The position numbers and the translations under genes are program-made. 35,703 bases of DNA from a virus (taxonomy: Duplodnaviria > Heunggongvirae > Uroviricota > Caudoviricetes): the IMG/VR virus record IMGVR_UViG_2547132279_000002; one strand, given 5' to 3'. This document shows positions 3,673 through 35,703 of this stretch, in pieces. The notes under the pieces are model-generated. The model was not told the origin of the DNA, did not search any database, and saw only the letters and a program-made list of their open reading frames with translations. Positions within the stretch are counted from its first letter, which is position 1, and every line of letters begins with the position of its first letter.

Positions 3673-3687
3673 CGCTGACTCTCCGGA

Positions 3688-4428: not shown

Positions 4429-4435
4429 ATCGTCC

Positions 4436-5406: not shown

Positions 5407-5417
5407 ACATCCCCCTT

Positions 5418-5771: not shown

Positions 5772-5782
5772 AGCGCCTCCCG

Positions 5783-6181
5783 TTATTGCATTCTGGCCAG
5801 GCCACGTTCTGTCATTTCGGCTGCCACACCGGCAGAGACACGAAACGCCGTTCCCGGCAGCACAAATGCCACAGGTTTATCCCGCGTGGCGTGAAGTGCA
5901 TCAGTATGCAGCGTCACCAGTGCCACGACCGTGACCAGTTCAGCCGTATCCTGAATCACGGTATCCGGCTGCGCTGATATCACCTCATTTTCATGCCCGG
6001 TCAGCACATTTTCCCGGCTGAGAGGGGTGTCCTGACCGGCAGTTTCATCCGTGTCATCAAGCTCTTCTTCCAGCTCTGCCACACGAAGCGCCAGTTCTTC
6101 TTTCGTTCCCGTCAAACTGATATCGCGGTTCAGTTGCTCACCCAGCTCCTGAAGACGGGCAATCAGTTCATCTTTCGTCAT
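5783..6181 (-). CDS. FI: DNA packaging protein FI
   Basis: ORF contains MTKDELIARLQELGEQLNRDISLTGTKEELALRVAELEEELDDTDETAGQ..., like lambda gpFI; start set at the internal ATG preceded by GGAGG. Confidence 0.85.
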   Translation of the reverse strand: MTKDELIARLQELGEQLNRDISLTGTKEELALRVAELEEELDDTDETAGQDTPLSRENVLTGHENEVISAQPDTVIQDTAELVTVVALVTLHTDALHATRDKPVAFVLPGTAFRVSAGVAAEMTERGLARMQ

Positions 6182-6204
6182 GAACTCCTCCACAGAGAGA
6201 AAAT

Positions 6205-6218
6205 GGCCCCGAAGGGCC
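6205..6218 (-). other. perfect GC-rich hairpin (ggccc-cgaa-gggcc) in the E-FI intercistronic gap
   Basis: Seen directly: inverted repeat ggccc / gggcc with a 4-nt loop between the E stop and the FI ribosome binding site. Confidence 0.5.
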
Positions 6219-6222
6219 ATGA

Positions 6223-7248
6223 TTACGCCAGTTGAACGGACACGAACTCATCAGGATCAGCCAGCAGCATCAGCGGTGCTGACTGAATCATGGTGAACTC
6301 ACGCGCCGGATCGCCGGTGGTCACCCAGTTTTTCGGGTAACGGGCAGAGGCGTTAATGCCTTCGCGCTGTGCGTCCGCATCCTGAATGCAGCCATAGGTG
6401 CGCAGACCGCGAGCCTGAGTGTTCCCCAGCACCATCGTGTTGTCCGGCAGGAAGTTCTTTTTGACGCCGTTTTCCACGTACTGTCCGGAATACACGACGA
6501 TGGCCACATCGCCATACATTCCCTTATAGGACACCGCTTTGCCCAGGTCTTTTACCGCTGTCTCCAGCTCGGAATGAGAGCCGCGACGGGTATCCAGCTT
6601 CTCCTTGACGGCTTTGAAGGAACGGAACAGCGCCCAGCCTTTCGGGTCAAACACGATGATATTCACCACACCGCTGGCGTTCAGCGCGTAGGCTTCGATA
6701 TCGTCGGTCGGGTCATACGTGGACTTGTCACGCTTGCTCCACTCCGTGCCGCCGGACTGCGTGATGTTATTCGCCGCACTGCGGCCCATATCCACCTCAA
6801 CCGGATCGAAGGCTTCACCGGTCATGGTGTATTTGCCCTTAAGCACGGCAGAAACTGCCTGCATCTCTTCGACCTGGGCAATCGCCAGATTTTCATCCAG
6901 CATATTCTGCCGAATAATACGGCGACGACGGTAAGCCGGGTCCGCCAGATTCTGCGGATCTTCATCCGGCAGGCGACGCAGGGTCATCTGCGGATTCACC
7001 TCATGCTTGGGTTTGACATATCCCGGCGTAAATTCAGAGGTGGAGCCGCCACGGGAACGGATAACCTCACCGGAAACAATCGGCGAAACGTACAGCGCCA
7101 TGTTTACCAGTCCCGGAATTTGTGAGAGATAGACTTTCTCCGTGGTGAAAGGATAGGTTTCACGGAAAAACAGGCGCAGAAACAGCGGATCGAACTTAAA
7201 GTGATGCTGGGTCGATGCCAGTAATTCTGCAGTTGTATATACAGACAT
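6223..7248 (-). CDS. E: major capsid protein E
   Basis: 341-aa ORF MSVYTTAELLASTQHHFKFDPLFLRLFFRETYPFTTEKVYLSQIPGLVNMALYVSP..., matches lambda gpE. Confidence 0.95.
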   Translation of the reverse strand: MSVYTTAELLASTQHHFKFDPLFLRLFFRETYPFTTEKVYLSQIPGLVNMALYVSPIVSGEVIRSRGGSTSEFTPGYVKPKHEVNPQMTLRRLPDEDPQNLADPAYRRRRIIRQNMLDENLAIAQVEEMQAVSAVLKGKYTMTGEAFDPVEVDMGRSAANNITQSGGTEWSKRDKSTYDPTDDIEAYALNASGVVNIIVFDPKGWALFRSFKAVKEKLDTRRGSHSELETAVKDLGKAVSYKGMYGDVAIVVYSGQYVENGVKKNFLPDNTMVLGNTQARGLRTYGCIQDADAQREGINASARYPKNWVTTGDPAREFTMIQSAPLMLLADPDEFVSVQLA

Positions 7249-7261
7249 AAATTATTTCCAT

Positions 7262-7282
7262 AAAAAAAGCCGCACAGGCGGC
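7262..7282 (-). terminator. hairpin plus U-tract between D and E (terminator or attenuator-like)
   Basis: Minus strand reads GCCGCCTGTGCGGC followed by TTTTTTT, located after the D stop and before the E start. Confidence 0.45.
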
Positions 7283-7303
7283 CTTTGTTGATGAAGGGGA
7301 AGA

Positions 7304-7636
7304 TTAAACGATGCTGATTGCCGTTCCGGCAAACGCGGTCCGTTTTTTAGTCTCGTCGCTGGCAGCCTCCGGCCAGAGCACATCCTCATAACGGAACGAG
7401 CCGGACTTGTAGAACGTCAGTGTGGTGCTGGTCTGGTCAGCAGCAACCGCCAGAATGCCAACGGCTGCACCGTCGGTGGTGCCATCCCACACAACCAGCT
7501 TACGGGTAGTGCCATCCAGCATCAGCGGGGTCATTGCAGGCGTTTTCGCACTCAATCCGCCAGGCGCAATTGCTGTATGAGCCGGATCACTGTTACCCAG
7601 CGGCTGGTAATGGTTAAACTCTTCTTTTGTCGCCAT
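7304..7636 (-). CDS. D: head decoration protein D
   Basis: 110-aa ORF ...[32 protein letters not shown]...[11 protein letters not shown], matches lambda gpD. Confidence 0.95.
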
Positions 7637-7645
7637 AACTGCCTC

Positions 7646-8053
7646 TTATACCGGTAAAGCTTCAGGTGTATTAAGTAATTCTTTATTGGTATCAGATGCC
7701 AGGTTACCTGCAGCCAGCGGTGCCGGTGTACCCTGCATCAGACGATCCAGCGCAGTGTCACTGCGCGCCTGTGCACTCTGTGGTGCTGCAGCCAGAATGC
7801 GGCGGGCCGTTTCCACGGTCATTCCGGGGGTTTCTGCCAGAACGCGCGCCTGTTCTTCGCGTCCGTGAGCCTCCTCACAGTTGAGGATCCCCATAATGCG
7901 GCTGTTTTCTGCCGCAACCGCAGCGGTGATCTGCGCGTTCACGTCCGGCTGCGCCGCGCTGGCGTTTTCGCCCTCCGTCGCTGGCACCACGTCAGTAACG
8001 TCAGCCTGCGAAGCAGTGGCTGAAACAGTTGTTGATTGAGTCTCTTTGGTCAT
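7646..8053 (-). CDS. Nu3: scaffolding protein Nu3 (in-frame internal start within C)
   Basis: Internal ATG giving MTKETQSTTVSATASQ... to the shared stop; position follows the lambda C/Nu3 nested arrangement. Start placement is inferred. Confidence 0.55.
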   Translation of the reverse strand: MTKETQSTTVSATASQADVTDVVPATEGENASAAQPDVNAQITAAVAAENSRIMGILNCEEAHGREEQARVLAETPGMTVETARRILAAAPQSAQARSDTALDRLMQGTPAPLAAGNLASDTNKELLNTPEALPV

Positions 8054-8957
8054 TCGCCCTCCTGAGAGACGGGATTTACGTGCATCCAGTGCATCACGCA
8101 TAACGGTGATCGCATCGGTGCTGTTGACAAGTTCATCAGCCAGTCCGGCATCAATGGCCTCCTGACCGCTGTACACTGCAGCCTCGGTATCCAGCACAGC
8201 CTGCACGGACAGGCCGGTATATGCCGACACCTTCTGCGCAAACATCCGGCGGGTTGCATCCATCCGGGACTGCAGTGTCTCCCGGACGTCATCCGGAAGA
8301 TGGCTGTAGGGGTTGCCATCCACCTTATGGCTGCCGCTGTAAATCAGCGTGATTTCCACGCCCTGTTTCTCCAGCGCAGCACCGTAATTACTGTGAGCCA
8401 TCATGACGCCGATGGAGCCTGTCCGGGCGGTCTGCGTGACCAGACGCCGGGAGGCGGCGCTGGCAAGCAGCTGACCTGCACTGCAGTTCATGTCGTTGGC
8501 CAGCGCCCATACCGGTTTTATGTCTCGCACACGGGCGATGATGTCAGCACAGTCAAATGCTCCCGCCACCATCCCGCCCGGTGTGTCCATATCGAGCAGA
8601 ATGCCGTCCACCATCGGATCGCTGGCAGCCTGTTGCAGACGGGCGATAATGCCGTTGTAACCGGTCATTCCCGAATACGGCTGCAGCGCCCGCGTCCGGC
8701 TGACCAGCGTACCGGACACCGGCAGCACGGCGATGCCGTTCATGACCTGATAACTGCGGGCCTGTCGTGGTCCGTCATCATCACCGGATAACGCCAGCGC
8801 CGCGGGTGCCTCTCCGGCAGTCAGGCTGTCGCCGGACACCGCATCCGTCAGGCGACTGATCCCAAGCTGGCCTGCAAGCGCACAAAAGAAAACCCGCGCA
8901 TAGGCGGGTTCAAGCATCAGCGGCTCATTAAAAGCCATGCTGGCAATATGCGGGAGA

Positions 8958-8977
<20 letters not shown>
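7646..8977 (-). CDS. C: head maturation protease / scaffold C
   Basis: ORF contains VTAELRNLPHIASMAFNEPLMLEPAYARVFFCALAGQLGIS..., matching lambda gpC; start placed at GTG (8975..8977) preceded by GAGGAGGAGAAGA; the longer ORF in the track is an upstream extension. Confidence 0.85.
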
Positions 8978-12582
<3,605 letters not shown>

Positions 12583-12612
12583 GTAAGCGACTCGTCAGAA
12601 CCGTATTGATAT

Positions 12613-14184
12613 TTACTGAGAGGTCAGATCAACTTTCCAGGGCAACAGATCGCGTACCCGGTTTGCCGGCCAGTCCTGGATATGTTCAATGACGTAACGC
12701 AGCCACTTTTCTGGCTCCACATTGTTCAGACGGCATGTGCCGATCAGCGAGTACAACACCGCCGCATGTTCACCACCGCTGTCGGAACCCGCAAACATCC
12801 AGTTTTTCCGGCCTACGACCACTCCCCGTAAGGCGTTCTCTGCGATGTTGTTGTCGATTTCCACCCAGCCATTACTGCAGTACACGTTCAGTGCATCCCA
12901 CTGTTTCAGCAGGTATGCGAACGCTTTTGCCGTATCTGAGTGACGCGACAGTGTTTTCATCTGTTGCTGTATCCAGTCATACAGTGACTGCATCAGTGGC
13001 GCGGCTCTGGCTTTTCTTGCCGCCAGACGCTGTTCTGCTGAACAGCCCCGGACCTCTGCCTCGATGGCATACAGTTCACCGATACGCTGCAGGGCTTCCG
13101 TGGTGATGTAGGTGGGCGCTTTTGCATGCACATCGTGGATTTTTCTCCGGGCATGAGCCATACACGCGGCTTCCGTTATTCTGCCGGATTCGTATAACGC
13201 CCGGTAACCACCGTAAGCATCGGCCTGAAGCACACCGCTGTAACCGGCCAGGTGATTTTGTGGATGGATACCTTTCCGGTCCGGACTGTACGCGAACCAG
13301 ACCGCCGGGGGCATCTGTGAACCGGCGTTACGGTCATCACGGACGTAGACCCACAGCCGGGCTGTCCGGGTTTTACCGCTGCCCGGCTCCTGGACCGGGA
13401 CGGGGATATCATCAGCATGGACTTTACCGGGCATCAGCACATACTGGCGCAGGACGTCATACAGCGGCTCCAGCAGTTCAGCAACAGCACCTGTCCAGCG
13501 CCCCAGTGTGGCACGGCTCAGCTCCACTCCCTGACGACGGTATATTTCTGACTGGCGGTATAACGGCAGATGGTCTGCATACTTCCCGGTGACGATATGA
13601 GCCAGAAGCCCCGCTCCGGCATAACTGCGTGCAATGGGTTTTGAAGGTACTGGTGCCTGCACGATATGGTCGCACCGGCAACAGGCCAGTTTCGGACGTT
13701 GTGTTTCGATAACCTTAAAAGCGCTGCTGATAAGCTCCAGTTGCTCTGACACATCACACCCCAGAGGACTGAGGTCACCACCACAGGCCGGGCAGCATTC
13801 CTCTTCCGGCCGGATGACCCGGGTTTCACGGGGAAGTGAGGCCGGTAACGGCTTACGGGCTGAAGACTGGCGCAGGGCGGATGGCAGTACCGGGTCATAT
13901 TGCTCACCCAGCGTTTCCGCCATTTCTTCCTGAAGTGCGCTGATTCGCTCCTGGGCTTCCTGTATCTGCCGTTCGGTTTTAGCGCGAAGTTTTTCTGAGC
14001 TTTTACCGAACTGCATGCGCTGCAGTTTCGCAACCAGCGCCTTCAGCCGGTTGATTTCGGAAGCATAAGCCGCCACCCGCTGTGAGAGCAGGCGGTTGTA
14101 TTTCGCCATCTGGCGGATGGTGTCCTGTTGCGTCTGCAACAGTGCCCGCAGGCGGGCATTCTCATGAGCAAGTGAGGTGTCCAT
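12613..14184 (-). CDS. IS66-family transposase (Orf3/TnpC)
   Basis: 523-aa ORF with N-terminal coiled-coil, CxxC...CxxC zinc-finger-like segment and DDE-type core as remembered for IS66 transposases. Confidence 0.85.
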
Positions 14185-14203
14185 ATCCTCACTTTACAAC
14201 GGG

Positions 14204-14551
14204 TTATATGCGGATGCCAGCGCGTTCCGTTCGTTTCGGGTGCTTCCAGTTGATACCTTCAAGAAGCATAGATAACTGAGCCGGAGTAAGGTGCACCTTG
14301 CCGTCACGGGTAACCGGCCAGACGAAGCGGCCCCGCTCCAGGCGTTTGGTGAAGAGGCACAGTCCGTCACTGTCAGCCCACAACACTTTTATCTGGTCAC
14401 CCCGGCGTCCGCGGAAGATGAACAGATGCCCGGAGAACGGGTCATCCTTCAGGACGTTCTGAACTTTTGATGCCAGGCCGTTAAAACCATTTCGCATGTC
14501 GGTGATACCGGCAACCAGCCAGATACGCGAACCGGCAGGGAGAGATATCAT
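14204..14551 (-). CDS. IS66 Orf2 (TnpB accessory protein)
   Basis: 115-aa ORF MISLPAGSRIWLVAGITDMRNGFNGLASKVQNVLKDDPFSGHLFIFRGRRGDQIKVLWADSDGLCLF..., characteristic IS66 Orf2. Confidence 0.85.
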   Translation of the reverse strand: MISLPAGSRIWLVAGITDMRNGFNGLASKVQNVLKDDPFSGHLFIFRGRRGDQIKVLWADSDGLCLFTKRLERGRFVWPVTRDGKVHLTPAQLSMLLEGINWKHPKRTERAGIRI

Positions 14552-15201
14552 TAGTGGCTGCTCCCTTTCATTTCGCGGATAAGTGTCTGTAATAACGCCG
14601 GTGTCAGTTCACCTTTCAGCCTGAGAGTTCCGGCCGGCAGAACCAGCTCACAGCACAGACTGTCGGGCGGTGTATTTATCTGTTCAGGTATCTGCACTGG
14701 TGCCGGGATTTTATTATCCGGCTCCGGAGTTAACGTCACGGGAAGTAGCGATGTTTCATGTTCGCCGGTCGGCTGCAGGCCGCCGTTACGCCAGAGATGC
14801 CGCCAGTTAAAGAGCAGGTTATCGTTGATTCCGTTCTCACGAGCTATTTGTGCGACACAGGCACCGGGTAAAAGAGTTTGCTGAACAAGCCTCCATTTAA
14901 ACTCCGGTGAAAATCGGTTCCGGCGGATTTTCTCTGTTTTCACAGGCTGAGTCACTGTCGGGGCTGAAGGGTATCGCCCCGGGAACAGAGCCCGGGCCAG
15001 TTGCACGCAGGAATATTCTCCGGAAAGAGGCCAGTCAGTGAATACCTGGTGAAATCGCCTCACCAGAGAAAAAATGGCGGTTTTGCTGATACCGGTCTGC
15101 GCAGAAATGCGCGGGTACGACAGTGACTCGTCAAATCTCAGTTGTAGCACACGCAGGATCAATTCCGGATTGTCTGCCAGTACCGCTTTTCGTGCATTCA
15201 T
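14551..15201 (-). CDS. IS66 Orf1 (TnpA accessory protein)
   Basis: 216-aa ORF immediately upstream of and overlapping Orf2 (ATGA), typical IS66 organisation. Confidence 0.75.
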   Translation of the reverse strand: MNARKAVLADNPELILRVLQLRFDESLSYPRISAQTGISKTAIFSLVRRFHQVFTDWPLSGEYSCVQLARALFPGRYPSAPTVTQPVKTEKIRRNRFSPEFKWRLVQQTLLPGACVAQIARENGINDNLLFNWRHLWRNGGLQPTGEHETSLLPVTLTPEPDNKIPAPVQIPEQINTPPDSLCCELVLPAGTLRLKGELTPALLQTLIREMKGSSH

Positions 15202-18499: not shown

Positions 18500-18929
18500 T
18501 TTAAGCTGTGTGACGAAGTAACCACTCTTAACAGCATAACCAATTTTTTACGTACGTAAACCACTAAATGATATTTGCGAGAATGCTACCGAGTATTGAA
18601 AACACCACTACAAATACATAAGCAAATCTCAACAAATAACCAACAAATAATTTCCAGTGTTATTTTTAGCCGATTTAAATTGAACCTTCAAATCATAGAG
18701 CACTTATAAATAACAACCGTTAATATAAATTGGCTAATAGATTTATTTTTATTCAGCCAAGAGCCATGAATAGGATTCGATAGAAAAAAGTTCAGATAAA
18801 AATAGAGATCTACTTCACAAATCAAACGAGAAACCAAAACTTACATCTTGAAATAATCATATTGATTAGATGAATATTTATCGCGCAGTGACATCATTTT
18901 TTAATAATAGTTCAAAAAAAGGGCTCACG

Positions 18930-20027
18930 ATGAAAAAATTAACAGTGGCAATTTCTGCTGTAGCTGCATCAGTACTGATGGCGATGTCTGCTCAGGCAGC
19001 TGAAATTTATAATAAAGACAGTAACAAGCTGGATCTGTACGGGAAAGTTAATGCTAAGCACTACTTCTCCTCTAATGATGCAGATGATGGTGATACTACT
19101 TATGCCCGTCTTGGCTTCAAAGGTGAAACCCAAATCAACGATCAACTGACTGGTTTCGGTCAGTGGGAATATGAATTCAAAGGCAACCGCGCTGAATCTC
19201 AAGGTTCCTCCAAAGATAAAACCCGTCTTGCCTTCGCTGGCCTGAAATTCGGTGACTACGGCTCCATCGATTACGGCCGTAACTACGGTGTAGCATACGA
19301 CATCGGTGCGTGGACTGACGTTCTGCCAGAATTCGGTGGCGATACCTGGACCCAAACAGATGTGTTCATGACTGGTCGCACCACTGGTGTTGCAACCTAT
19401 CGTAACAACGACTTCTTTGGCCTGGTTGATGGTCTGAACTTTGCTGCTCAGTACCAAGGCAAAAACGATCGTAGCGATTTCGATAACTACACCGAAGGTA
19501 ACGGTGATGGCTTCGGTTTCTCTGCTACCTATGAATACGAAGGATTCGGTATCGGTGCAACTTATGCGAAATCTGATCGTACCGACACTCAAGTTAATGC
19601 AGGGAAAGTTCTTCCTGAAGTATTTGCTTCCGGTAAAAATGCAGAAGTTTGGGCCGCAGGTCTGAAATATGACGCTAACAACATTTACCTGGCCACTACC
19701 TATTCTGAAACCCAGAATATGACTGTATTTGCTGATCACTTCGTTGCTAATAAAGCTCAAAACTTCGAAGCTGTTGCACAATATCAGTTCGATTTCGGTC
19801 TGCGTCCGTCCGTTGCTTACCTGCAATCTAAAGGTAAGGATCTTGGAGTATGGGGCGATCAGGACTTAGTCAAATATGTTGATGTAGGTGCCACCTATTA
19901 CTTCAACAAAAATATGTCAACTTTCGTTGATTACAAAATCAACCTGCTTGACAAAAATGACTTCACTAAAGCACTCGGTGTAAGCACTGATGACATCGTT
20001 GCTGTAGGTCTGGTTTACCAGTTCTAA
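18930..20027 (+). CDS. outer membrane porin (OmpC/NmpC/Lc family), prophage moron
   Basis: [47 protein letters not shown]...; signal peptide, general porin motifs and C-terminal aromatic residue (ends YQF); located between Q and S in opposite orientation like nmpC in DLP12. Confidence 0.9.
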
Positions 20028-20216: not shown

Positions 20217-20600
20217 TTAATTAGAGTTATTAACAACGATATCCATCTCTAACCGGATATCTAATGCCATTAACATCCCTTCAATTATGCCCTCAGCCTT
20301 CTGTAACCTTTTCCCGATATAACCATCAGAGCAGCAATGCTTACCTGCCAGTGACATGAATGTCATACCGACTACATAATAATCTACTAATAAATCGTGC
20401 AAATCGCTGTTGTTCTTTTTCAGACGGGCCATGCACCCGCAAATAATCATCGCGTCATCGTCACAACATTGCGGGCGAGATTTTACTTTTGAAGTAATTA
20501 ATCCCTTAAAACCGGCGGCAATGGACGACCAGGTCACATCTTCATGATTATTAGCCGCCCACGCTCCCCAACGCTCAAGAACCATCTGAATATCACGCAT
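20217..20600 (-). CDS. Q: late gene antiterminator Q (DLP12 QuuD-like)
   Basis: ORF contains [35 protein letters not shown]...[20 protein letters not shown]..., matching remembered QuuD; start set at the internal Met. Confidence 0.8.
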
Positions 20601-20685
20601 CAACTTACTCCACAAAAATCAGACCAGAACGCCAATTACAAGCAAAAATCAACAAAACAGTATTAGTTGATTGTTATCTCTGACT

Positions 20686-20823
20686 TCATACTCCTGCTCC
20701 TGTCAGTGTTTTGGCGTAATTCTTCAGTATTCGGTAATCGGTCAAAACAGAACCGGGGAAACGATATAAGCGCAGGCGCACCCAGCGGCGGCGAAGACGC
20801 TCTGCCATATAAGACTCAAACAT
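20686..20823 (-). CDS. ylcG: small protein YlcG-like
   Basis: 45-codon [48 protein letters not shown] whose ATG overlaps the rusA stop; resembles DLP12 YlcG. Below the ORF-track length cut-off, found by hand translation. Confidence 0.5.
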   Translation of the reverse strand: MFESYMAERLRRRWVRLRLYRFPGSVLTDYRILKNYAKTLTGAGV

Positions 20824-21185
20824 CATTCATCTCCCAGTTCGGTGATGGTCAGTTCCAGCCTCCCACCTTTGGTAACAGGCATCTTCACAACGCGGTAATC
20901 AACGACCTGAGCATCATCCAGCCAGAAACCTGCTTTAGTGAGTGCGTCAAAAGCGGCTTTTTGCAGATTATCCAGGTCACGGCGACGGCGATCCGGCATG
21001 TGGCACTCAATGCGGATTTTCACAGGCATAGCCAGGCCGATATCCAGCATTGCGTTTTTAATGATTCGGGCGACGTTATCGCGGTATGCCTGCCCTTCTG
21101 CGCTGATGTGCGTGCGCCCGCGATTATGCCGGTAGTAGCGGTTATTGCTCGGAGGCCAGGGTAATGTGATGCTGTAGGTATTCAC
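20823..21185 (-). CDS. rusA: Holliday junction resolvase RusA
   Basis: 120-aa [50 protein letters not shown]...[34 protein letters not shown], matches RusA. Confidence 0.9.
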
Positions 21186-21472: not shown

Positions 21473-21635
21473 GACTCCTCCTTGCTGCCAGTCGCAACCA
21501 TTTTTTATCAACCAAGCTGGCGGTATATCCGAGCAGTGTTGGTATTTCGGAAGGCTTCAGCTCAGGTTTACGCTTACGACGATTTGGTACTCTGTAAATG
21601 TGCCCGTTCATGACACGAATAAGCGGTGTAGCCAT
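21465..21635 (-). CDS. ninE: NinE-like small protein
   Basis: Hand-translated 56-aa [59 protein letters not shown], basic, in the ninE position between ninB and ybcO; start overlaps the ninB stop. Confidence 0.5.
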   Translation of the reverse strand: MATPLIRVMNGHIYRVPNRRKRKPELKPSEIPTLLGYTASLVDKKWLRLAARRSHG

Positions 21636-22090
21636 TACTCCTCCTGCTTGTCGCGCAGCAGCTGGAACTCGCAGCTCTGCGGAATAGTCAGGTGGCAGCC
21701 AATATTCATCGCCCAGGCTTCAACCTTACACAGGAAGACATACATCTCTCCGGTATCAAGATCGGAGGTATGGCGTAACGACTGGATAGTAGTGATTTCG
21801 CCGGTTACGACATCAACCAAGTCCTTGGTTTCATAACCGAGGTATGTGTGTTTGAGTGCATCTTTTACCCATACTGCAGTAGCGAACGTTTTCCCCCTGC
21901 TGATGAGGTACTCGCTGATTTCGCTGTACCACATGTGGCTGAGTGCATTCTGGGAAAGACTGCGTCTCTCGCGCCACGGTTTAAGCACCATGCGAAAGCA
22001 TTTTCCGTCCTCCAGATAAGGCTGGATCTGCTGACCGATAGTGGTGAAGTTACCGCGATGTAATTTGATGCCGTCTTGTGGGAGGTTCAC
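21635..22090 (-). CDS. ninB: NinB / YbcN-like recombination protein
   Basis: 151-aa ORF; segment [24 protein letters not shown] resembles the lambda NinB motif RNRSLDQNRKLWACLGDVSRQV; position matches the nin region. Confidence 0.7.
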
Positions 22091-22612
22091 GCTTCACCTC
22101 CGCAGAGGTCAAACGTTGGATGCAAAGAATCGCAGGTGCATTTCTGCATCTGTGAAGGGAGAAGAGAGTTTAGATTGTATGTGCGCATAAACGTCCCCGT
22201 TTAGCGCAGAAGTCACCGGAGGTGTTCAGGCTCCGATGCGATAATTATGACGATCTGATTTTGGAAAATCAAATTTAAGTAACCGCCAACCTATAATTTT
22301 CAATCAAGATTTCATTTATTAGCTCACTCATATAAAAATACATTACAACGTTTTTATCTCTTAATTTATGAAGGCAACCTCGAAAAACAAATCACCCAAA
22401 CACTTTAAAACAATTAAACCCGTTTAAAATTACAATTACATTTAGAAAGCAAACTTTCAAAAGATGTGATGATACAATTGCATAAAACAAATACTTGGGG
22501 TAAAATATAAAAATAACACTCCCAGCTTAACGCTAGGTGGCGGTAGCGTGTATTTTTCAAATACGCCTATCACCCCATTATGTTTTTTCATATTTAAGAG
22601 ATTGGTTATATA

Positions 22613-24399
22613 ATGGAACTAATATACACTTATATCCACAATTATAAAGGTTTAAATAAGCTGTCCCTCCCCACCTCAAGTAAATTTACCTTTAGCCATA
22701 AAGGTAACGTCCTTACAATTGCTAAGAAAGATTTAAGTCGTGACTATTATAGCAATATTCCCTGTACATTAATTTTAGGGAAAAATGGTGTTGGAAAGTC
22801 ATCAATTTTAGATTTCATTAGTAGCTTTATTTACGATTTTGAAGGTAGCGGTTATAGCATCTGGAATGAAAATGATAAACTTATAATTATCACAAGCAAT
22901 TGCAAACCTCCTGTAATATTATCCAAAATGCAAACGGAACTAATTGATAATAATGAACATTTTTTTAGAAGAAACAAAATCAATCTAATAAAGATAAATA
23001 ACACAATCGACCTCAAAAGTATGTTAGTTGGACAAAAAAGAAAAAAAACGATTCGATTTCTAAAGATTTATCACTGTCATATTTTTTGCAAGGCAGTAAA
23101 ACACGCAATAAGAAATTACTCAAGCAATTAATTTCATTTTCAGACCACAGTTCATGGGCTAAAGACAATTTATCAAGACTTAATACTAAATTTCAATTTG
23201 AAATAGAAAACTCACCAGTATATAAAATAAATTCTATTATAAAAAACAATGATATTGGTGACAAAGGACTTTTTGGAGCTATTGAATACTTTTTTGATAC
23301 GTTGAATGATAGAATTAAAAACAATAAACTCCCTAGATATATTGAACGTGATTTAGATTCTTTAGGTATTTCACTTGTGGATATACTCAATCATGGGATA
23401 GATTACGATGAAGATTTTATTATTAGCATTATTTTTAACAAAGAAAGATCATTAAATTTCCTCGCAACCTTTTCATATCACAAAATAATTTACTTGATGC
23501 TTTTGCCTGCAATAACATGGCATTTACTCAAGACATCAAAAATCCCTAAAGACATATGTGAGACTGTTTATTTATTTTGCTTGTGTCGCGCGTATCTTGA
23601 AGAAAAAGATCCAGCAAAAACTATATTAGAGACTTTAGATGAATTTAACGTTAATGTTAAATTTCAGTCAAAAATAGAAATGTTATCTGAACATATCTCC
23701 GACATTATAGGTAATATAGCTGATATATTAGAAAACACAGCAAGAGACCCAGTTGATAGTTTATCTTTCACAGTTGAAGAACCAAAGCAGATTATGGAGT
23801 TAATAAGATTAGTTGATAGGTTACCAAATGGCGTATCATCGCGATTTAAGTATGGTTGGGATTCACTTAGTTCAGGAGAGTTTGCAAAATTAAACCTTTT
23901 CAATCAACTTTATGATTCTATAGAACATAGCAACAGCAAAAATATTATAATATTATTAGATGAGTGTGATTTATATCTACACCCTGAATGGCAACGAGTT
24001 ATTTTTTCAGAAATTATAGATTTAACATTAAGATATAAACAAAGTAAAAATATTCAATTAGTATTTACAACTCACTCCCCTATACTCGCAAGTGATTTTT
24101 TGCCATCAGATATAATATATCTTGAAAGAGATCATAATCAAGGAACCTATACTAAGAAAGTAGAGTTTGGTTTCGGAGCAACCATATCAGAATTATATAT
24201 AAATGGTTTTTTTATTGATGCTACAATAGGACAGCACGCACATAATTATCTAAACTCAATAATAAAAAACTCAGATGACGGTAATTTAAATAAACATCAA
24301 AAAACCATACTATCACAAATTAAAAATAAACTTCTCATAAATCTTATTGATCTGAAGTTAAACAAAAACAATGATAAAACAGATTCTTTTGAGAAATGA
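22613..24399 (+). CDS. ABC-type (AAA15/AAA21-like) ATPase, reading frame broken at a poly-A run (~23034..23049); PtuA-like
   Basis: Two overlapping ORFs (22613..23131 and 23086..24399) in different frames. Walker A LILGKNGVGKSS in the first; signature-like LSSGEFAKLN, Walker B IIILLDECDLYLHPEW and H-loop FTTHSP in the second. The second frame is open from 23002; the switch falls in aaaaaagaaaaaaaa. Confidence 0.65.
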
Positions 24400-24408
24400 G
24401 TAAAAAAA

Positions 24409-25601
24409 ATGATAAAAATAAACAAAGACTTCAATGTTGATGTAAAAATATCCTTTTCTAAAATAGTAAGCAAAGTTAATAAACGCGTGAAGCAGAGGAA
24501 GTTACTGAACATTACTCCCGATGAAGTAGAGTTTCTAAATACAATCAACAAAAAAACTATCAGAAAATTAGTTTTTTCAAAACCCAAACGATTAAAAAAT
24601 ATAATCATCAAAATATACAACAAACACCCAATTGTGTGTGAGTACTATTCTCCTGATTATTTTTTAAGGCACTTAAATTTACAACCATTAACAAACCTAC
24701 AATTACCTTTAAAAACAAAAGAAACAAAAAAATAGTTTATAATGAACTAGCACATGCCATCAAAATAATCACATCTTTCTCTCAAACTACACAAAGCCTA
24801 ATACTTGAGGATATATTAAATACACATTTCTCACCACAAAAATTATCTAGTTTAAGAGATAAGATTCTTAATCTTATAAGTATCAAGAATGGTGGTCCTT
24901 TAAAGGAAAATACCATTAAGTTATTTCCATCATGGGTTAAAAATATTTCTGAAATATTTAAATACTCACTTATTGATAGAGAAACAGCGTATCAATTGAA
25001 CAGTTTTTTAGACATTAGCATATGCCCATATTGCAACAGTGAAGAAATTGAACAAGTAGAAGACCATACAGGTACTAGCTACAGGCCAGCATTTGATCAT
25101 TTCATACCTAAGTACAAATATCCGTTGATCTCCTTTAGTTTATTTAACTTAATTCCTAGCTGCACTAAATGCAATAGTACTTATAAAAAATCACTCGATC
25201 CGATCATGAGCCCATTTTCAAATCCTTTTCTTGAAGGTGTAAATGACACTCAGCTTTTTGATTTTAATTATGACATTGATTATATATATAGAGATGGCCA
25301 AATTGATGATGATCACATTCAAATTATACTAAAAAAACAAAAAAACAACATCGATGAAAACATGGCTAAACTTAGCATAGAGAATAGATATAATTCACGC
25401 ATTAGAAAGAAAGCAGTTAGATTAATTGCAAAGAGAGCATTTGATCTAAAAGCTTATGAAGAAAATTTCATTATAGAACCAACTCTTTTCGCTACTTTCG
25501 GTTACGAGACTAACATTGAGCCGCTAAAGCATATGCATAAAAAACTTACTCAAGATGCAATATTAGTATTCTGCAACAAACAAGTACCGTTAATTGAATA
25601 A
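24409..25601 (+). CDS. HNH endonuclease-domain protein, frame broken at a poly-A run (~24711..24731); PtuB-like
   Basis: ORF 24996..25601 carries CPYCNSEEIE...FDHFIPKYKYP...NLIPSCTKCNSTYK (HNH with two CxxC pairs) but starts at TTG; its frame is open back to 24657 with no ATG and abuts ORF 24409..24735, which ends in gaaacaaaaaaatag. Confidence 0.55.
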
Positions 25602-25946
25602 GTAAAATGAAAGGATATCGAGCTATATAATGTAGTATGTCGAAAAATCAAACAGAAAAAAATCGAATAGTTACACTGTGCTCGGTGCTGTCTTCATGCT
25701 CCGTTCCTCTCGTAGGCTAGTAAAATTCGCGTCATCACCGGGCTTGGGGGCCATCATCGAAAATCTGATTGGTGCTTTTGTGCCAAGAGATTTCCTCTTC
25801 GGTTACCAATCGGTAGTGAATCGTTCGCTAGATATTGCTGACATCGACCAGATCGCCCTGCTTTGTCAGAATGTTTACGGTCTGGTTGATGCCGCAGGAT
25901 GAACTATATTTTCTGGGGGAAAGGTTTTATGTGTCTTGAAGGTAGT

Positions 25947-26669
25947 TCAGGTTAGCTTCACTCCCGTTAATTGTTTACGTCTTCTCAGTCCGTGCTTCTC
26001 GCGAATCTCAGCCAACTTTGCCAATCCTTGTATACGGGATAGCGGCTTACCACCAATAACCGGAAGCTGTTTAACTGGCTCGGGAATCGCCTCACCACGG
26101 TTAATTCTCGCAGTCATATGGGCAAGTTCATCGGCAGCCTTGCGCCGTAATTCCGAGTCAGTCAACGCATTGGCCCGCATATTCTGGTACAGGTTGGTAA
26201 CCAACCAGTAGTGCGCGTTTGATTTCCATGGATAAGACTCTGCGTCCGGATACAGGCCACGCTTCCGGCAATACTCGTAAACCATATCAACCAGCTCGCT
26301 GACGTTTGGCAGCCCGGCGCTAACGGATGCTTCTTCCCGGCACCATGCAACAAACTGCCCGGGTGATGGCAGAAATGGTCGATTCTGCCGACGGGCTACG
26401 CGCATTCCTGCGTTAACCTGTTCCATTGTGGCGATCCCGTTTTCCCGGAAAGCCAGCACCCACTGGCGGCGGATTTCGTTCAGTTCGTTCTGGTCCCGGT
26501 TAGCCAGGCTCGCCGGGAAAGTTGCCAGTAACTGGCTGAACACACCATTGATAATCTGCGCTACCTGCTGTACCTGCGGCTTTTCGTCGTACTGTTCCGG
26601 CATGTTGTTGGCGATCCGACGCATCTGCTCACGGTCAAAGTTAATCATCTGTGCGGCGATGTTTTTCAT
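25947..26669 (-). CDS. P: replication protein P (DnaB helicase loader)
   Basis: 240-aa ORF MKNIAAQMINFDREQMRRIANNMPEQYDEKPQVQQVAQIINGVFSQLLATFPASLANRDQNE..., near-identical to remembered lambda P. Confidence 0.95.
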   Translation of the reverse strand: MKNIAAQMINFDREQMRRIANNMPEQYDEKPQVQQVAQIINGVFSQLLATFPASLANRDQNELNEIRRQWVLAFRENGIATMEQVNAGMRVARRQNRPFLPSPGQFVAWCREEASVSAGLPNVSELVDMVYEYCRKRGLYPDAESYPWKSNAHYWLVTNLYQNMRANALTDSELRRKAADELAHMTARINRGEAIPEPVKQLPVIGGKPLSRIQGLAKLAEIREKHGLRRRKQLTGVKLT

Positions 26670-27595
26670 AGATCAACCCCGTAAATCCAGTCTGTGTTTG
26701 TCAGGTCGAGTTTTGGTTTGCTGGCTGTCACGCCTGCCTGTTGCTTGTTACGGTTGATTTCGAGCTGGGTCCACTTGTCGCGGAGTTTGGCCGGACTTAG
26801 CACGTTACCGGACCAGAAGTTGTCCTGGCATGCCCAGCGGAACAGCACGCACATGTCGCGGTGGTTACGTCCGTCACGTTCACGCATCAGGCGGATATCG
26901 TTAGCCCACCCTGCAAAATTCGGTTTTCTGGCTGATGGCGCGATGGTCTTCACCATGTCAAACATCCACTCTGCGGCGGTCAGGTCTTCTGCTGTCCCCC
27001 ACTTGCTGCCGCTCTGAATCGCAGCATCCGGTTTCACCACAGGAAGGTCGTTTTCTGGCTGGTCAGAGGATTCGCCAGAATTCTCGGACGAATAAGGTTT
27101 TATATTGTCTTTTGTTAGTTTGTCTTTTGTGTTTACCTGATTCGGGTAAACGTCTTTACCTGATTTGGGTAAACTTTTTTTACCTGATTCAGGTAAATTT
27201 ACCTCTTTCAGGTAAACTTTATTTTTCTTACCTGATTCGGGTAATGTTGACCATTCACTGACCACATTATTAATGCCGGTATTCCGCCCGCTCTGAATAA
27301 GAATCCCACGCTTTACCAGAACGCTTTTTGCAGCAGAACACTTGTGCGGCAATATCCCGGTCAATTCGGAAAGTTGCTCGTTGCTCACCCAATCCAGTTT
27401 TTTATTAAAGCCATATGTTTTGCGCATGACAGCCAGGAAGACCAGAAGCTGGTGCTGTGTTAATCCGGCCAGCATCACAGCTTCCAGCAACTCATTTGCA
27501 ATGCGCGTATAACCATCATCGAGATCTGCCACGCGCGGCTCCTTTTGTGCCACATCCGGCACTGGAAAATTGAATATCTCAGCAGTGTTTGCCAT
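26666..27595 (-). CDS. O: replication initiator O
   Basis: C-terminal two thirds match lambda O (YPNQVNTKDKLTKDNIKPYSSENSGESSDQPENDL...WIYGVDL); N-terminal DNA-binding part differs from lambda; start set at ATG preceded by GGGAGG (cat at 27593..27595). Confidence 0.9.
   Translation of the reverse strand: MANTAEIFNFPVPDVAQKEPRVADLDDGYTRIANELLEAVMLAGLTQHQLLVFLAVMRKTYGFNKKLDWVSNEQLSELTGILPHKCSAAKSVLVKRGILIQSGRNTGINNVVSEWSTLPESGKKNKVYLKEVNLPESGKKSLPKSGKDVYPNQVNTKDKLTKDNIKPYSSENSGESSDQPENDLPVVKPDAAIQSGSKWGTAEDLTAAEWMFDMVKTIAPSARKPNFAGWANDIRLMRERDGRNHRDMCVLFRWACQDNFWSGNVLSPAKLRDKWTQLEINRNKQQAGVTASKPKLDLTNTDWIYGVDL
27133..27243. repeat. replication origin iterons within O (five copies of palindromic ~16-bp repeat TACCTGATTCGGGTAA, spaced ~23-24 bp) with adjacent AT-rich tract
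   Basis: Seen directly: tacctgattcgggtaa (27133), tacctgatttgggtaa (27156), tacctgattcaggtaa (27180), tacctctttcaggtaa (27199), tacctgattcgggtaa (27228); encode the repeated LPESGKK peptide in O; AT-rich run at ~27090..27130. Confidence 0.8.
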
Positions 27596-27681
27596 AATTC
27601 CTCCCGCAATGAGTGCGTTACGATTTGCGCCTGAAAGTCGGCTCTGTTCCCGCAGACCGGCTTTCGCCATTTCTGAGCCTG

Positions 27682-28221
27682 TCATATTGCCCCCAACATG
27701 GTGGTAACCATCGCCATCAATGGACCAGCCAGATCCGGGTCCACACGAAACATCGACACAATACCTTCACTAATTTCCTTCAGTTTCTGGTGGCGTGGTG
27801 CGTTGAGAATGACAGCCTGTTTTGCCTCACTGAGTTCCTTTTCCATTTCAGCCAGCCGAGTCATGAAGCTATCCTGCTCAACCAGGTAACCGCGATATTC
27901 CAGCGGTAGTACCGCCAGAATTGCCGGGGTCAGTTCACGCACGTTATTTCGGTATTTTTCAGAATCGAATTTGTTATCGAGGAAGCGGAACAGCTTCTGG
28001 CGTGCACGGCTGACATCATCAGGGAAATCGATGGTGCCGTCGCCCTGCTCCCGATACTCATTCACAATGAGTGCGGCAACGACATCCTGATTATCTACAG
28101 CCGACCAGGCGCGGACGGCATCACGGATTTTTTCGTGGTCTGGCACCTGTTTTGTTTGAGAACGATTTATCACCGCAGTCGGGCTAAATCCGCTAGTCTG
28201 TTGGTATGTAAGTGGTTGCAT
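27682..28221 (-). CDS. CII-position regulator, YdaT-like
   Basis: 179-aa ORF in the cII position (between cro-like gene and O); segment TPAILAVLPLEYRGYL resembles the Rac YdaT motif IPAILAILPRELRHRL as I remember it. Confidence 0.55.
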   Translation of the reverse strand: MQPLTYQQTSGFSPTAVINRSQTKQVPDHEKIRDAVRAWSAVDNQDVVAALIVNEYREQGDGTIDFPDDVSRARQKLFRFLDNKFDSEKYRNNVRELTPAILAVLPLEYRGYLVEQDSFMTRLAEMEKELSEAKQAVILNAPRHQKLKEISEGIVSMFRVDPDLAGPLMAMVTTMLGAI

Positions 28222-28290: not shown

Positions 28291-28521
28291 TTAAGCTGCG
28301 TTCTTTTCGGTGTGTGGAAACAACTTCGGAAGATCCGGGCGAATCTGGTATGCCTTCACTACTCCACCAGTAGCCGTAACAATGCTGCCGACATGTTCAG
28401 GGGATACCTTTGCTTTGTTGTGAAGCCACTTATAGACGGCCTGCTGTGAAACTTCGCAAGCAGCGCCCAGTTTCTTTTGTGAACCAACGATATTGATCGC
28501 TGTTTTGATAGCTGGGTTCAT
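28291..28521 (-). CDS. cro: Cro-like / YdaS-like HTH regulator
   Basis: 76-aa ORF divergent from cI; helix-turn-helix-like segment LGAACEVSQQAVYKWLHNK. Confidence 0.7.
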   Translation of the reverse strand: MNPAIKTAINIVGSQKKLGAACEVSQQAVYKWLHNKAKVSPEHVGSIVTATGGVVKAYQIRPDLPKLFPHTEKNAA

Positions 28522-28625
28522 AACAACCTCCGTGGTTAATTTGAATCAAGATTAAAACTATGGTTGTTTTTAGTCAACAACCATTTTCGTTTGATGGAAT
28601 AAAACCTTGGTTGTACATTTGGACT
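28522..28625. promoter_or_regulatory. immunity operator/promoter region (OR, divergent PR / PRM) between cro-like gene and cI
   Basis: Four copies of half-site ACAACC/GGTTGT in 104 bp, including the 25-bp palindrome ATGGTTGT-n9-ACAACCAT at 28560..28584; AT-rich; sits between divergent repressor genes. Confidence 0.55.
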
Positions 28626-29315
28626 ATGAAAACAACACTCTCAGAAAGACTTAAAGAAGCCAGATTAGCGCGAGGCCTTACACAAAAGGCGCTTGGGGAT
28701 TTGGTCGGGGTTAGCCAGGCTGCTATTCAGAAAATCGAAACAGGGAAAGCTAATCAAACAACTAAAATCGTGGAGATCGCGAACGCTTTGGGTGTGCGCG
28801 CAGAATGGTTATCTTCTGGCGTTGGAAATATGTCAGACAGTACAGTGCAACCAATACAATCAACTGTCAGCCATTCCAAATACTTCAAGATTGACGTTCT
28901 TGATATAGAAGTCAGTGCTGGGCCGGGAGTCATCAACCGTGAGTTTGTAGAAGTTCTACGCTCGGTTGAGTACTCGTTTGACGATGCTCGTCACATGTTC
29001 GATGGTAGGAAGGCGGAAAATATCCGCATCATTAACGTGCGTGGTGACAGCATGTCAGGAACGATCGAACCAGGTGATCTGCTGTTCGTTGATATCACGG
29101 TTAAATCTTTCGACGGTGATGGTATCTATGCGTTTCTGTACGACGACACAGCCCATGTAAAGCGCCTGCAAATGATGAAGGATAAGCTGCTGGTTATCTC
29201 TGATAACAAGAGCTACTCACCGTGGGACCCGATCGAGAAAGACGAGATGAACCGGGTGTTCATCTTCGGTAAGGTTATTGGGAGCATGCCCCAGACGTAC
29301 AGGAAACATGGATAA
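28626..29315 (+). CDS. cI: CI-type prophage repressor (HTH + LexA-like S24 peptidase domain)
   Basis: MKTTLSERLKEARLARGLTQKALGDLVGVSQAAIQKIETGK... HTH; C-terminal GDSMSGTIEPGDLLFVD...AHVKRL with Ser/Lys dyad; start set at internal ATG 28626. Confidence 0.85.
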   Translation: MKTTLSERLKEARLARGLTQKALGDLVGVSQAAIQKIETGKANQTTKIVEIANALGVRAEWLSSGVGNMSDSTVQPIQSTVSHSKYFKIDVLDIEVSAGPGVINREFVEVLRSVEYSFDDARHMFDGRKAENIRIINVRGDSMSGTIEPGDLLFVDITVKSFDGDGIYAFLYDDTAHVKRLQMMKDKLLVISDNKSYSPWDPIEKDEMNRVFIFGKVIGSMPQTYRKHG

Positions 29316-29381: not shown

Positions 29382-30245
29382 ATGGATTGTGACGCTTTAC
29401 AGGATATAAAAATCTCTCTTAGGTATGACGGAAAAGATGCTTTAAATCATGAAATAGATTTGAACTGCCTAGGAGAATCCCTAAAGGGTTTTTCTAAAGT
29501 TCTCTCAACAGCAGCTTCTTTCTCTGTTACACAAAAATATAGTAAATACATTAATTATCAGGAAGTTAAGGTTTACGCACGCGAAGCAAAAGCTAACTGC
29601 TTTACTCTTGAAGCAGTTCTTAACTTCGCCACTCAGAACCAGTTGTTCTCGGGGATCGCCGCAACTATACTTGGCGCAATACTACAATATATTTTTGCGA
29701 GAAATTCTAACAAGAAAGATGAAATGAAAGCTTTGCAGCAGTCACTTGAAAAGGCCATAGAGGCACTAGGAAACAAGGATGCTGGAACCATTGATAAGTT
29801 GATCTCTTTGATTGACCGAATGGCTGTAGAGCTTCGCCCCTCTGTAAGGCAGGCAGTATCACCTATTGGTAATACTTGCGATCAGATAAGTGTTGCAACA
29901 AATGTTGACGGCTGCCTTCTAAAAGTTAACGAGAGAGATAAAGCTGAAATTGATAGGCTTGATGATGATGAAGTTCTCGGTCTTCGTGAGTATCGTGCTT
30001 TTCTTACAGAATTTGATGCACAAAATATGACAGCTAAAATAATTTTAGATGGTGATGACTCAAAAAAGAGAATCACTGCTGAAATTAGCGATCCAGCTGC
30101 AGGAAAGAAGAATAACCCGTATATTAGAGCTCTTAGTGCATATATATCAACCAAAGGTGATCCATCTGCAGTATTCACTATAACCGCAAAGGCTACTGTT
30201 AAAAAAGGCCAGATAAACAGGTTATTTATTGTAGATGCGAAATGA
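29382..30245 (+). CDS. hypothetical 287-aa protein in the rex position immediately downstream of cI
   Basis: Long ORF co-oriented with cI, visibly more AT-rich than cI, with one hydrophobic segment [19 protein letters not shown]; followed by a strong terminator; no family recognised. Confidence 0.6.
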
Positions 30246-32769: not shown

Positions 32770-32927
32770 AGCATCCTCACGATAATATCCGGGTAGGCAC
32801 GATCACTTTCGTCTACTCCGTTACAAAGCGAGGCTGGGTATTTCCCGGCCTTTCTGTTATCCGAAATCCCCTGAAAGCACAGCGGCTGGCTGAGGAGATA
32901 AATAATAAACGGGGGCTGTATGACTGA
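32766..32927 (+). CDS. small hypothetical ORF overlapping exo stop and methyltransferase start
   Basis: Hand-translated 53-aa [56 protein letters not shown] with ATGA overlap to exo; coupling only, no homology recognised. Confidence 0.3.
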
Positions 32928-33477
32928 TTTCACCGGAAGCAATACTCCTGCCGAACATCGCGACAGCTGGCGCACACCACCAGAGATTTTTGCTGCGCTT
33001 AATGCAGAGTTCGTTTTTCAACTTGATGCTGCCGCCAGCGAAAAAAACCGACTATGTCGGCTTTTTATCTCACAGGAGCAGAACACATTAACCACTTCAT
33101 GGCCTGAAGCAATGGGATATGCCTCTGGTTATGTCTGGTTGAATCCACCATACAGCAATATTTCCCCTTTTGTGAAAAAGGCAGCCACTGAAAACAAATT
33201 CAGTAGTGTGGGATGTGTAATGTTATTGCCTGCTGACACATCTGTCGGATGGTTTCATGAAGCGATACAAACCGCCAGTGAGGTCAGATTCATCACGGCA
33301 GGACGACTGGCATTTATTAACCCACTCACTGAGAAACCCGTCAGTGGAAATAATAAAGGCTCGATGCTCATTATCTGGCACCCATACCCCCGTACACACT
33401 GCCACTTTACGACTGTTGATCGTGGAGAGTTGATGGCGTTCGGCTCAAGGATTCTTGCCCGTCGGGAGGCTGCATGA
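32920..33477 (+). CDS. phage DNA N6-adenine methyltransferase (Dam-like)
   Basis: 185-aa ORF with the catalytic NPPY motif (YVWLNPPYSNISPF) and N-terminal RTPPEIFAALNAEFVFQLDAAAS typical of phage Dam-family MTases. Confidence 0.75.
   Translation: MTDFTGSNTPAEHRDSWRTPPEIFAALNAEFVFQLDAAASEKNRLCRLFISQEQNTLTTSWPEAMGYASGYVWLNPPYSNISPFVKKAATENKFSSVGCVMLLPADTSVGWFHEAIQTASEVRFITAGRLAFINPLTEKPVSGNNKGSMLIIWHPYPRTHCHFTTVDRGELMAFGSRILARREAA

Positions 33478-34610: not shown

Positions 34611-35703
<1,093 letters not shown>

Follow-up and report, generated by a model that had tools for sequence, protein, structure and literature searches.

The 35,703-nt window analysed here, which comprises one whole draft contig (IMG/VR record IMGVR_UViG_2547132279_000002), is a DLP12-like lambdoid prophage of Escherichia coli. 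Between its replication gene P and the ninB-like gene ybcN lies an AT-rich island, a mobile two-gene cassette which forms non-essential cargo of the P-ninB slot in the prophage of an enterotoxigenic E. coli lineage. The first gene (gene A) codes for a PtuA-like ATP-binding cassette (ABC) ATPase and the second (gene B) for a long PtuB-like HNH nuclease, and on the basis of profile matches the pair is assigned as a distant enterobacterial member of PDC-M62, a candidate family of the PADLOC database and a long-form relative of Septu. It is considered probable that the island represents a mobile Septu-like PDC-M62 defence cassette carried in a prophage, of which the copy in this window is most likely inactive. 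In the intact alleles, the ABC ATPase is obligatorily paired with a PtuB-fold HNH nuclease whose catalytic residues are intact, and a role in defence is suggested.

An ABC ATPase and a long PtuB-like HNH nuclease

The intact product of gene A corresponds to WP_001702986.1 (595 aa), which is annotated as an 'AAA family ATPase'. A first-pass annotation, made by a model from the DNA letters and their open reading frames (ORFs), had described a Walker A motif, an ABC signature, a Walker B motif and an H-loop in this gene. All four elements, which together characterise the ABC ATPase PtuA of Septu, were located: Walker A (GKNGVGKSS) at 22778-22804, the signature (LSSGE) at 23866-23880, Walker B (LLDECDLYLHPEW) at 23953-23991 and the H-loop (TTHSP) at 24067-24081. 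In an alignment of 78 sequences of the gene A product, G56, N58, G61 and K62 of Walker A, S420 and G422 of the signature and D450 and E451 of Walker B are invariant, as are the columns H457/P458, S489/P490 and D495. The Pfam domains AAA_21 and AAA_15 are matched above threshold; the 'AbiEii toxin' label attached to AAA_21 was dropped as an artefact of the family name, and an OLD/Gabija affiliation was dropped as there is no Toprim domain. Among the PADLOC profiles, the best match is to PDC-M62A (PDLC04734, 4e-44), which aligns residues 1-570 with profile positions 1-548 of 597, and three more PDC-M62A profiles match below 1e-25. The PtuA profiles (~5e-19), which cover the C-terminal core only, are outscored by PDC-M62, and the retron ATPase_I-A profile (2.7e-16) is likewise restricted to this core, while the AriA profile PDLC02979 matches at 2e-17 over profile positions 7-372 of 373. 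The nearest sequences of solved structure are PtuA from the retrons Ec78 and Ec83 and from Septu. A Foldseek search with the AlphaFold2 (AF2) model (predicted local distance difference test score, pLDDT, 82.6) returned retron I-A PtuA (3.8e-10), AriA (8v46_C, 7e-8) and Septu PtuA (7e-7).

The intact product of gene B corresponds to WP_004030156.1 (397 aa), annotated as 'hypothetical', and contains an HNH motif of the pattern CxxC...DH...N...CxxC in the middle of the protein. The HNH motif with two CxxC pairs that had been pointed out in the first reading was found as CPYCN (25023-25037), DHFIP (25095-25109) and NLIPSCTKCN (25146-25175). Residues C206, C209, N210, D230, H231, N247, P250, C255 and N256 are invariant in the family alignment, and the 16-residue spacing between H231 and N247 equals that between H75 and N91 of a validated Septu PtuB (PMC13096335), in keeping with an HNH nuclease of the PtuB/TIGR02646 fold. 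As the motifs of both proteins fall on columns that are invariant in the family alignments, they cannot be put down to chance. In the AF2 model (pLDDT 92.6), residues 1-200 are all-helical and are followed by an HNH-containing module (residues ~200-397). The PDC-M62B profiles of PADLOC match at 1.5e-33 (PDLC04743) and at 8.8e-26 (PDLC04741), the latter over residues 1-347 including the N-terminal domain, and outscore the PtuB profiles (3e-8), which cover the HNH core only. From the profile, motif and AF2 results, therefore, the gene B product consists of a complete PtuB-like module preceded by an extra N-terminal domain of ~200 aa. A sequence search of the PDB with this protein gave no meaningful match. 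A homing endonuclease was also considered and was dropped, since the protein has the whole PtuB fold and always pairs with the ATPase.

A phmmer search with residues 1-201 of the gene B product against 1.84 billion representative proteins returned 22 matches. In all 18 full-length matches (387-404 aa) the domain is N-terminal and a CxYCN...DH...N...CN core follows at residues 206-216, the remaining four being short fragments; the domain is specific to this architecture. Close full-length relatives of B (43-99% identity) are restricted to the Enterobacterales, and more distant relatives occur in the Vibrionaceae, Pseudoalteromonas and the Bacillus cereus group. Among the provirus relatives in IMG/VR, the HNH core is positioned at residue ~46 in the short, classic PtuB-like forms and at ~110, ~125, ~150-155, ~190 and ~215 in others, and almost all of these relatives (loci L027-L069) are preceded by a Walker A-containing ORF of 485-817 aa. 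With core positions graded in this manner, the long form appears as the extreme of a continuum of extension lengths and not as an independent invention, and the graded N-terminal extensions suggest a stepwise elaboration of PtuB-like nucleases.

The assignment to PDC-M62 follows from the match of gene A to the PDC-M62A profile and of gene B to that of PDC-M62B, with both genes adjacent on the same strand. This family is among the 145 candidates that PADLOC took up from a guilt-by-embedding screen (Payne et al., bioRxiv 10.1101/2024.01.29.577857), in which genes were nominated for lying inside known defence systems, and the PDC-M62 profiles in PADLOC-DB v2 comprise ~600 positions for A and 328-401 for B. 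In the Bacillus cereus group, 203 loci have both Septu and PDC-M62 assignments among the PADLOC duplicate calls, and proteins called PDC-M62 by PADLOC also received DefenseFinder calls under different names (PMC11811056). The PDC-M62 profiles are centred on Bacillus, with B. mycoides P0097 scoring 3.6e-202 as opposed to ~1e-26 to 1e-44 for the E. coli pair, so that the latter is a distant member and the enterobacterial and Vibrio clade a distant branch of the family.

The pairing of an ATPase with an HNH nuclease in the manner of Septu, as proposed in the first-pass annotation, is thus upheld by the Pfam and PADLOC profiles, the predicted folds and the conserved gene pairing. The accompanying idea that the pair might be an undescribed variant falls, since PADLOC-DB v2 already holds the architecture as the candidate PDC-M62 with the same domain boundaries. 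An HNH protein of ~400 aa with an unrecognised N-terminal region had been expected; the length was accurate (397 aa), but the N-terminal region is covered by the PDLC04741 alignment. A match to a characterised system with equal domain boundaries had been named as grounds for giving up the proposal, and one half of this was found: the boundaries agree, while PDC-M62 is catalogued as a candidate only. The proposal of a defence candidate of Septu architecture stands.

Mobility of the cassette and its recurrent loss in E. coli

Genes A and B are adjacent and co-directional, with A first, in all eight genomic contexts, separated by 9 nt in E. coli and overlapping elsewhere. A scan of IMG/VR identified 50 provirus loci with relatives of the nuclease. 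Of the 48 loci that extend far enough upstream, 47 have a long ORF immediately 5' of the HNH gene, and 44 of these ORFs contain Walker A. In E. coli, Pantoea ananatis and Enterobacter roggenkampii the pair occupies the P-nin slot of lambdoid prophages. In Morganella morganii it lies in a tail-end slot, flanked by tail-fibre genes and the remnant of an integrase, in Serratia (near icd) and Ewingella in prophage or insertion sequence (IS) remnants, and in Enterovibrio in a chromosomal islet between speB and rlmA. Its GC content is 27-31% in every host, compared to 45-54% in the flanks, and the block from ~137 nt upstream of the gene A start to the gene B stop retains 70-81% identity between genera. 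The cassette is horizontally mobile prophage cargo. When the gene B product was compared by tblastn with 50,697 sequenced phages, one weak partial match was obtained, the cassette being absent from that collection.

In the window, the GC content of the island is 28.9% (gene A 0.287, gene B 0.293) against 51.8% in the remainder, falling to 0.25-0.33 between P and ybcN, and the island is by far the lowest-GC stretch of 3.4 kb, the next lowest outside it reaching 0.432. Both of its genes are on the plus strand and the early-right genes of the prophage are on the minus strand. The first reading had noted an AT-rich island between ninB and P, on the opposite strand to the early-right operon and in the position of lambda ren, and the GC calculation (0.289 versus 0.518) and gene coordinates agree with it; in an island-free E. 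coli prophage relative (locus L010) the same slot is filled by ren and two small ORFs. Homology to this relative stops at 22275 and restarts at 26040, so that the differing segment (22276-26039) slightly exceeds the AT-rich part. The extent originally given to the island, 22091-25620, holds for the AT-rich core but not for its left edge, as 22091-22275 is ordinary nin-region sequence common to ~2800 E. coli genomes. The same 3.5 kb is present at 99.3% identity or more in six of 5426 complete E. coli genomes.

Both genes are broken by a 1-nt deletion in the window, and the earlier reference to 'repaired' proteins was apt. Over ~1370-35697, these two deletions are the sole differences between the window and the TW10828 prophage. 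The deletion in gene A (A7 to A6 at 23033-23039) splits it into ORFs at 22613-23131 and 23086-24399, while that in gene B (A4 to A3 at 24718-24721) ends the first ORF at 24735 and leaves the HNH part in another frame up to 25601. With a frameshift in each gene the copy as written cannot be active and, judging by its sequence, it is probably dead. Among the contigs listed, the frameshifted fragments (172 aa and 108 aa) occur on the source contig only. Both genes are intact in TW10828, AR_0077 and EC38.

The system has been lost repeatedly in E. coli, where at least four independent disrupting alleles are found in gene A and at least seven in gene B, mostly in A/T runs or dinucleotide repeats (in window numbering at 22960, 23033, 23041, 24550, 24718, 24726-32, 24899 and ~25280). 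Three independent complete genomes (ETEC-2264, E2980 and 90-9280) have a common B deletion, A7 to A6 at 24550, to which 90-9280 adds an A8 to A9 insertion in gene A. The 24550 deletion yields an N-terminally truncated B of 322 aa, with the ATPase intact in the widespread form, and occurs on at least ~200 contigs, while the commonest intact B occurs on at least 188, these counts being derived from partial cluster listings and inflated by clonal sampling. Further alleles of gene B are the loss and the gain of one A in the A7 run (24726-32), the loss of TT at 24899, a deletion in a TA repeat around codon 293 (~25280) and one complex allele; gene A further shows the loss of a T at 22960 and a lesion at codon 438. 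Copies with a disrupted B and an intact A are common, and in all three A-disrupted copies of known B status B is also disrupted. Nine of the window's 16 homopolymers of at least 7 nt are located in the island, and mutational bias therefore contributes to the pattern of disruption.

Proposed mode of action and alternative explanations

By analogy with Septu and retron PtuAB, the intact pair would have a promoter of its own, active in the lysogen, where the early-right operon on the other strand is repressed; the antisense placement suggests expression in the lysogen and silencing upon induction. The ATPase may oligomerise and keep the nuclease inactive until a phage cue frees or activates it, with a structural protein such as the tail-fibre tip, or a fall in ATP, as the candidate cues. 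The nuclease would then nick DNA and/or cause the loss of a tRNA such as tRNA-Tyr, by which phage replication would be stopped and the growth of the infected cell sacrificed. The enlarged insert of the ATPase and the N-terminal domain of the nuclease would be the likeliest elements of docking or trigger specificity. Stand-alone Septu forms a PtuA6:PtuB2 assembly, and its DNA nicking drops as ATP rises (PMC12819146), while phages escape a Bacillus thuringiensis Septu through mutations in the tail-fibre tip (bioRxiv 10.1101/2022.08.27.505566). Cleavage of tRNA-Tyr and an abortive-infection-like growth arrest have been described for an E. coli Septu and retron-Eco7, both of which require the Walker motifs and the HNH H and N residues (PMC13096335). 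A bolder proposal, rather doubtful when taken as a whole, is that the B N-terminal domain and the enlarged ATPase insert may form a sensing or docking arrangement distinct from that of characterised Septu, with its own trigger and possibly its own substrate, and that the many independent frameshifts, mostly at short repeat tracts and with +1 and -1 changes at the same A7 run among them, might reflect a strong autoimmunity cost or even the reversible on/off switching of prophage-borne immunity rather than neutral decay.

Several results weigh against a Septu-like defence cassette. The template modelling scores of the structural matches of the gene A product are low (0.3-0.43), on account of its large helical insert, the Pfam HNH model scores 18.8 on full-length B, under its gathering threshold of 21.4, and a Foldseek search of the whole of B against the PDB gave no significant match. 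The NCBIfam models NF041760 (PtuA) and NF041761 (PtuB), both retron-type equivalogs, score 48.5 against a cut-off of 500 and 13.9 against 150, respectively. In the literature searched, no phage protection is reported for the enterobacterial clade or PDC-M62 and the E. coli proteins are unmentioned. Aside from the family assignment, the two frameshift alleles of the window could be homopolymer sequencing errors. In that event the copy in the window would be intact and active and its frameshifts would be errors of an old draft assembly, which is unlikely but far from negligible. Both indels are single-base deletions in A-runs, the restriction of the frameshifted fragments to one contig makes an assembly error possible at both sites, the low WP accession numbers may indicate an early draft, and the rest of the prophage is identical to that of TW10828, whose copy is intact. 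One of the deletions, however, lies in a run of just four A's, an unlikely site for such an error, no other run of at least seven bases differs from TW10828 in the remaining 32 kb, and other frameshift alleles, such as that at 24550, are clearly real.

The nearly full-length AriA profile match and the 8v46_C structural match of the ATPase would also fit a PARIS-like system, in which the ATPase, as a decoy-sensing scaffold, would bind a trigger protein of the phage (an anti-restriction protein or another) and release a nuclease cleaving host tRNA; tRNA targeting is reported for PARIS as well as Septu/retron PtuAB (PMC12819146, PMC13096335). PtuA structures nevertheless rank above AriA and the PDC-M62 and PtuA profiles outscore it, while the partner is an HNH protein and no Toprim/DUF4435 AriB is found among the best 25 of 39 PADLOC families; such a system is improbable here. 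A similarly slim prospect is that the pair primarily serves itself or its phage rather than general immunity, either as a selfish addiction or toxin-antitoxin-like module or, for example, by degrading host DNA or excluding closely related phages from superinfection. Host toxicity is described for retron-free PtuAB (PMC12819146), overexpressed Bacillus Septu slows host growth (bioRxiv 10.1101/2023.11.30.569366), and the disruption of B in each A-disrupted copy of known B status fits A restraining a toxic B. The frequent loss of B with A kept equally fits relaxed selection after a first mutation, however, the Enterovibrio cassette between housekeeping genes and outside a prophage argues against a phage-specific function, and PDC-M62 was nominated from positions inside defence systems and overlaps Septu calls. 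It is highly improbable that the pair represents the effector portion of a degenerate type I-A retron (retron-Septu), which would require a reverse transcriptase and a non-coding RNA. Retron I-A PtuA are the best structural and sequence neighbours of A, and a conserved, structured-looking leader precedes the gene, but no reverse transcriptase is annotated in the near-identical 37-kb region of TW10828 or in any of the eight contexts, the ATPase_I-A profile reaches the C-terminal core alone, and an Rfam scan of 21900-26100 gave no match at gathering score and a sole sub-threshold match to a snoRNA.

Read as a mobile Septu-like defence cassette, the E. coli pair provides a concrete and clonable example of PDC-M62, a candidate so far catalogued by computation alone, with intact alleles in TW10828 and AR_0077. 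It ties this candidate to Septu by fold, with N-terminal extensions among the relatives that place the HNH core anywhere from ~46 to ~215, and shows that such cassettes are exchanged between genera at the P-ninB slot of lambdoid prophages. The natural frameshift series could be used to probe the role of the N-terminal domain and the toxicity of the nuclease without the ATPase. No new principle is revealed by these findings.

Surroundings of the cassette and comparison with known systems

The coordinates of the cassette and its neighbours are collected in Table 1. The promoter-like element upstream of gene A came from a cross-genus alignment rather than from the sigma-70 scan, in which promoter-like sites were no commoner than in shuffled sequence (23 versus 20.5). 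Both of its hexamers are conserved columns despite ~70-81% overall identity, and this conservation suggests that it may be the cassette's own promoter. The block common with Pantoea begins at 22476. The hairpin of the leader encloses a 13-mer (GTGGCGGTAGCGT) that is invariant across E. coli, Morganella and Pantoea. In Pantoea conservation does not extend to the left hairpin arm, and the element may therefore serve as a protein or RNA recognition site, not as a terminator. Between the two genes, an A8 run at 24402-24409 bridges the gene A stop codon and the gene B ATG. An A7 allele of this run, found in other strains (loci L020, L021 and L026), alters the intergenic spacing and appears to coincide with copies whose B is called with four more residues at its N-terminus (MSKK-, 401 aa), and the run is a possible tuning point for translational coupling.

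Table 1. Coordinates of the cassette, its upstream elements and the neighbouring prophage genes in the window
Feature	Position	Strand	Remarks
AT-rich island	22276-25675		Composition; homology break relative to the island-free locus L010
Gene A, PtuA-like ABC ATPase (PDC-M62A)	22613-24399	+	595 aa if intact; profiles, motifs, nearest solved relatives PtuA
Gene B, long PtuB-like HNH nuclease (PDC-M62B)	24409-25601	+	397 aa if intact
Promoter-like TTGCAT-N17-TAAAAT	22478-22506	+	Ahead of gene A; conserved between E. coli, Morganella and Pantoea
Hairpin ACGCTA-N8-TAGCGT (6-bp)	22530-22549	+	Presumed 5' leader, ~65 nt ahead of the gene A ATG
quuD	20217-20615	-	Early-right gene
rusA	20823-21185	-	Early-right gene
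ninE, ybcO		-	Among the early-right genes
ninB-like ybcN	21635-22090	-	Left flank, nin region, outside the island
Left-flank feature, with 32-aa ORF just upstream of ybcN	21635-22188	-	Phage nin region, outside the island
Replication protein P	25947-26669	-	Right flank; last ~31 codons inside the variable segment
Replication gene O	26666-27685	-	Early-right gene
YdaT-like gene	27682-28221	-	Early-right gene
cro-like gene	28291-28521	-	Early-right gene

Elsewhere in the prophage, a gene at 29382-30245 (plus strand) codes for a 287-aa DUF7946+DUF7947 protein and is located right after a cI-like S24 repressor gene (28560-29315), in the slot of lambda rexAB. It has a GC content of ~0.39-0.41 and a weak match to PDC-S42 in PADLOC (1.5e-4), and may represent a second prophage-borne defence cargo gene. 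An orphan N6-adenine methyltransferase is encoded at 32920-33477 (PADLOC oMTase, 8e-32) and a porin gene (NmpC/Lc-like) occurs at 18870-20027, between Q and the lysis genes. The large terminase gene is split by an IS66 element (~12600-15200, as placed through the TW10828 annotation), and the prophage is therefore defective. The first ~1.4 kb (1-1370), in the tail tape-measure/tail gene region, is mosaic and indel-rich relative to the TW10828 prophage, and the far end of the window (35698-35703), when mapped onto TW10828, falls inside an IS100 copy.

Lambda ren and other P-ninB cargo of lambdoid phages share the genomic slot of the cassette, whereas the cassette genes are unrelated to these, lie on the opposite strand and are preceded by a conserved promoter-like element. 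With PARIS the cassette shares a related ABC ATPase scaffold, on which the AriA profile spans nearly the full length and for which AriA is among the top structures, but its effector is an HNH protein of PtuB fold and not the Toprim protein AriB. It differs from the PtuAB of type I-A retrons (Retron-Eco7/Ec78 and Ec83) in being without a linked reverse transcriptase or non-coding RNA. As in Septu, including that of E. coli ATCC 25922 (PDB 8EE4/8EE7/8EEA) and Septu Ec-B88, an ABC ATPase and an HNH nuclease form an operon with the same catalytic motifs and the same H-to-N spacing, and PtuA is among the best structural matches of A. Unlike in Septu, the nuclease has an extra N-terminal helical domain of ~200 aa, which places the catalytic histidine at residue 231 as opposed to 53-75 in the PtuB of the tested Septu systems compared from the literature, the stretch of the ATPase from Walker A to Walker B is ~130 aa longer (K62/D450 versus K43/D316), and the PtuA and PtuB profiles match the cores only, with the NCBIfam equivalogs far under their cut-offs. 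The likeness to PDC-M62 extends to the whole architecture, namely two co-directional genes coding for an ABC ATPase of ~600 aa and a protein of 330-400 aa with a mid-protein HNH motif.

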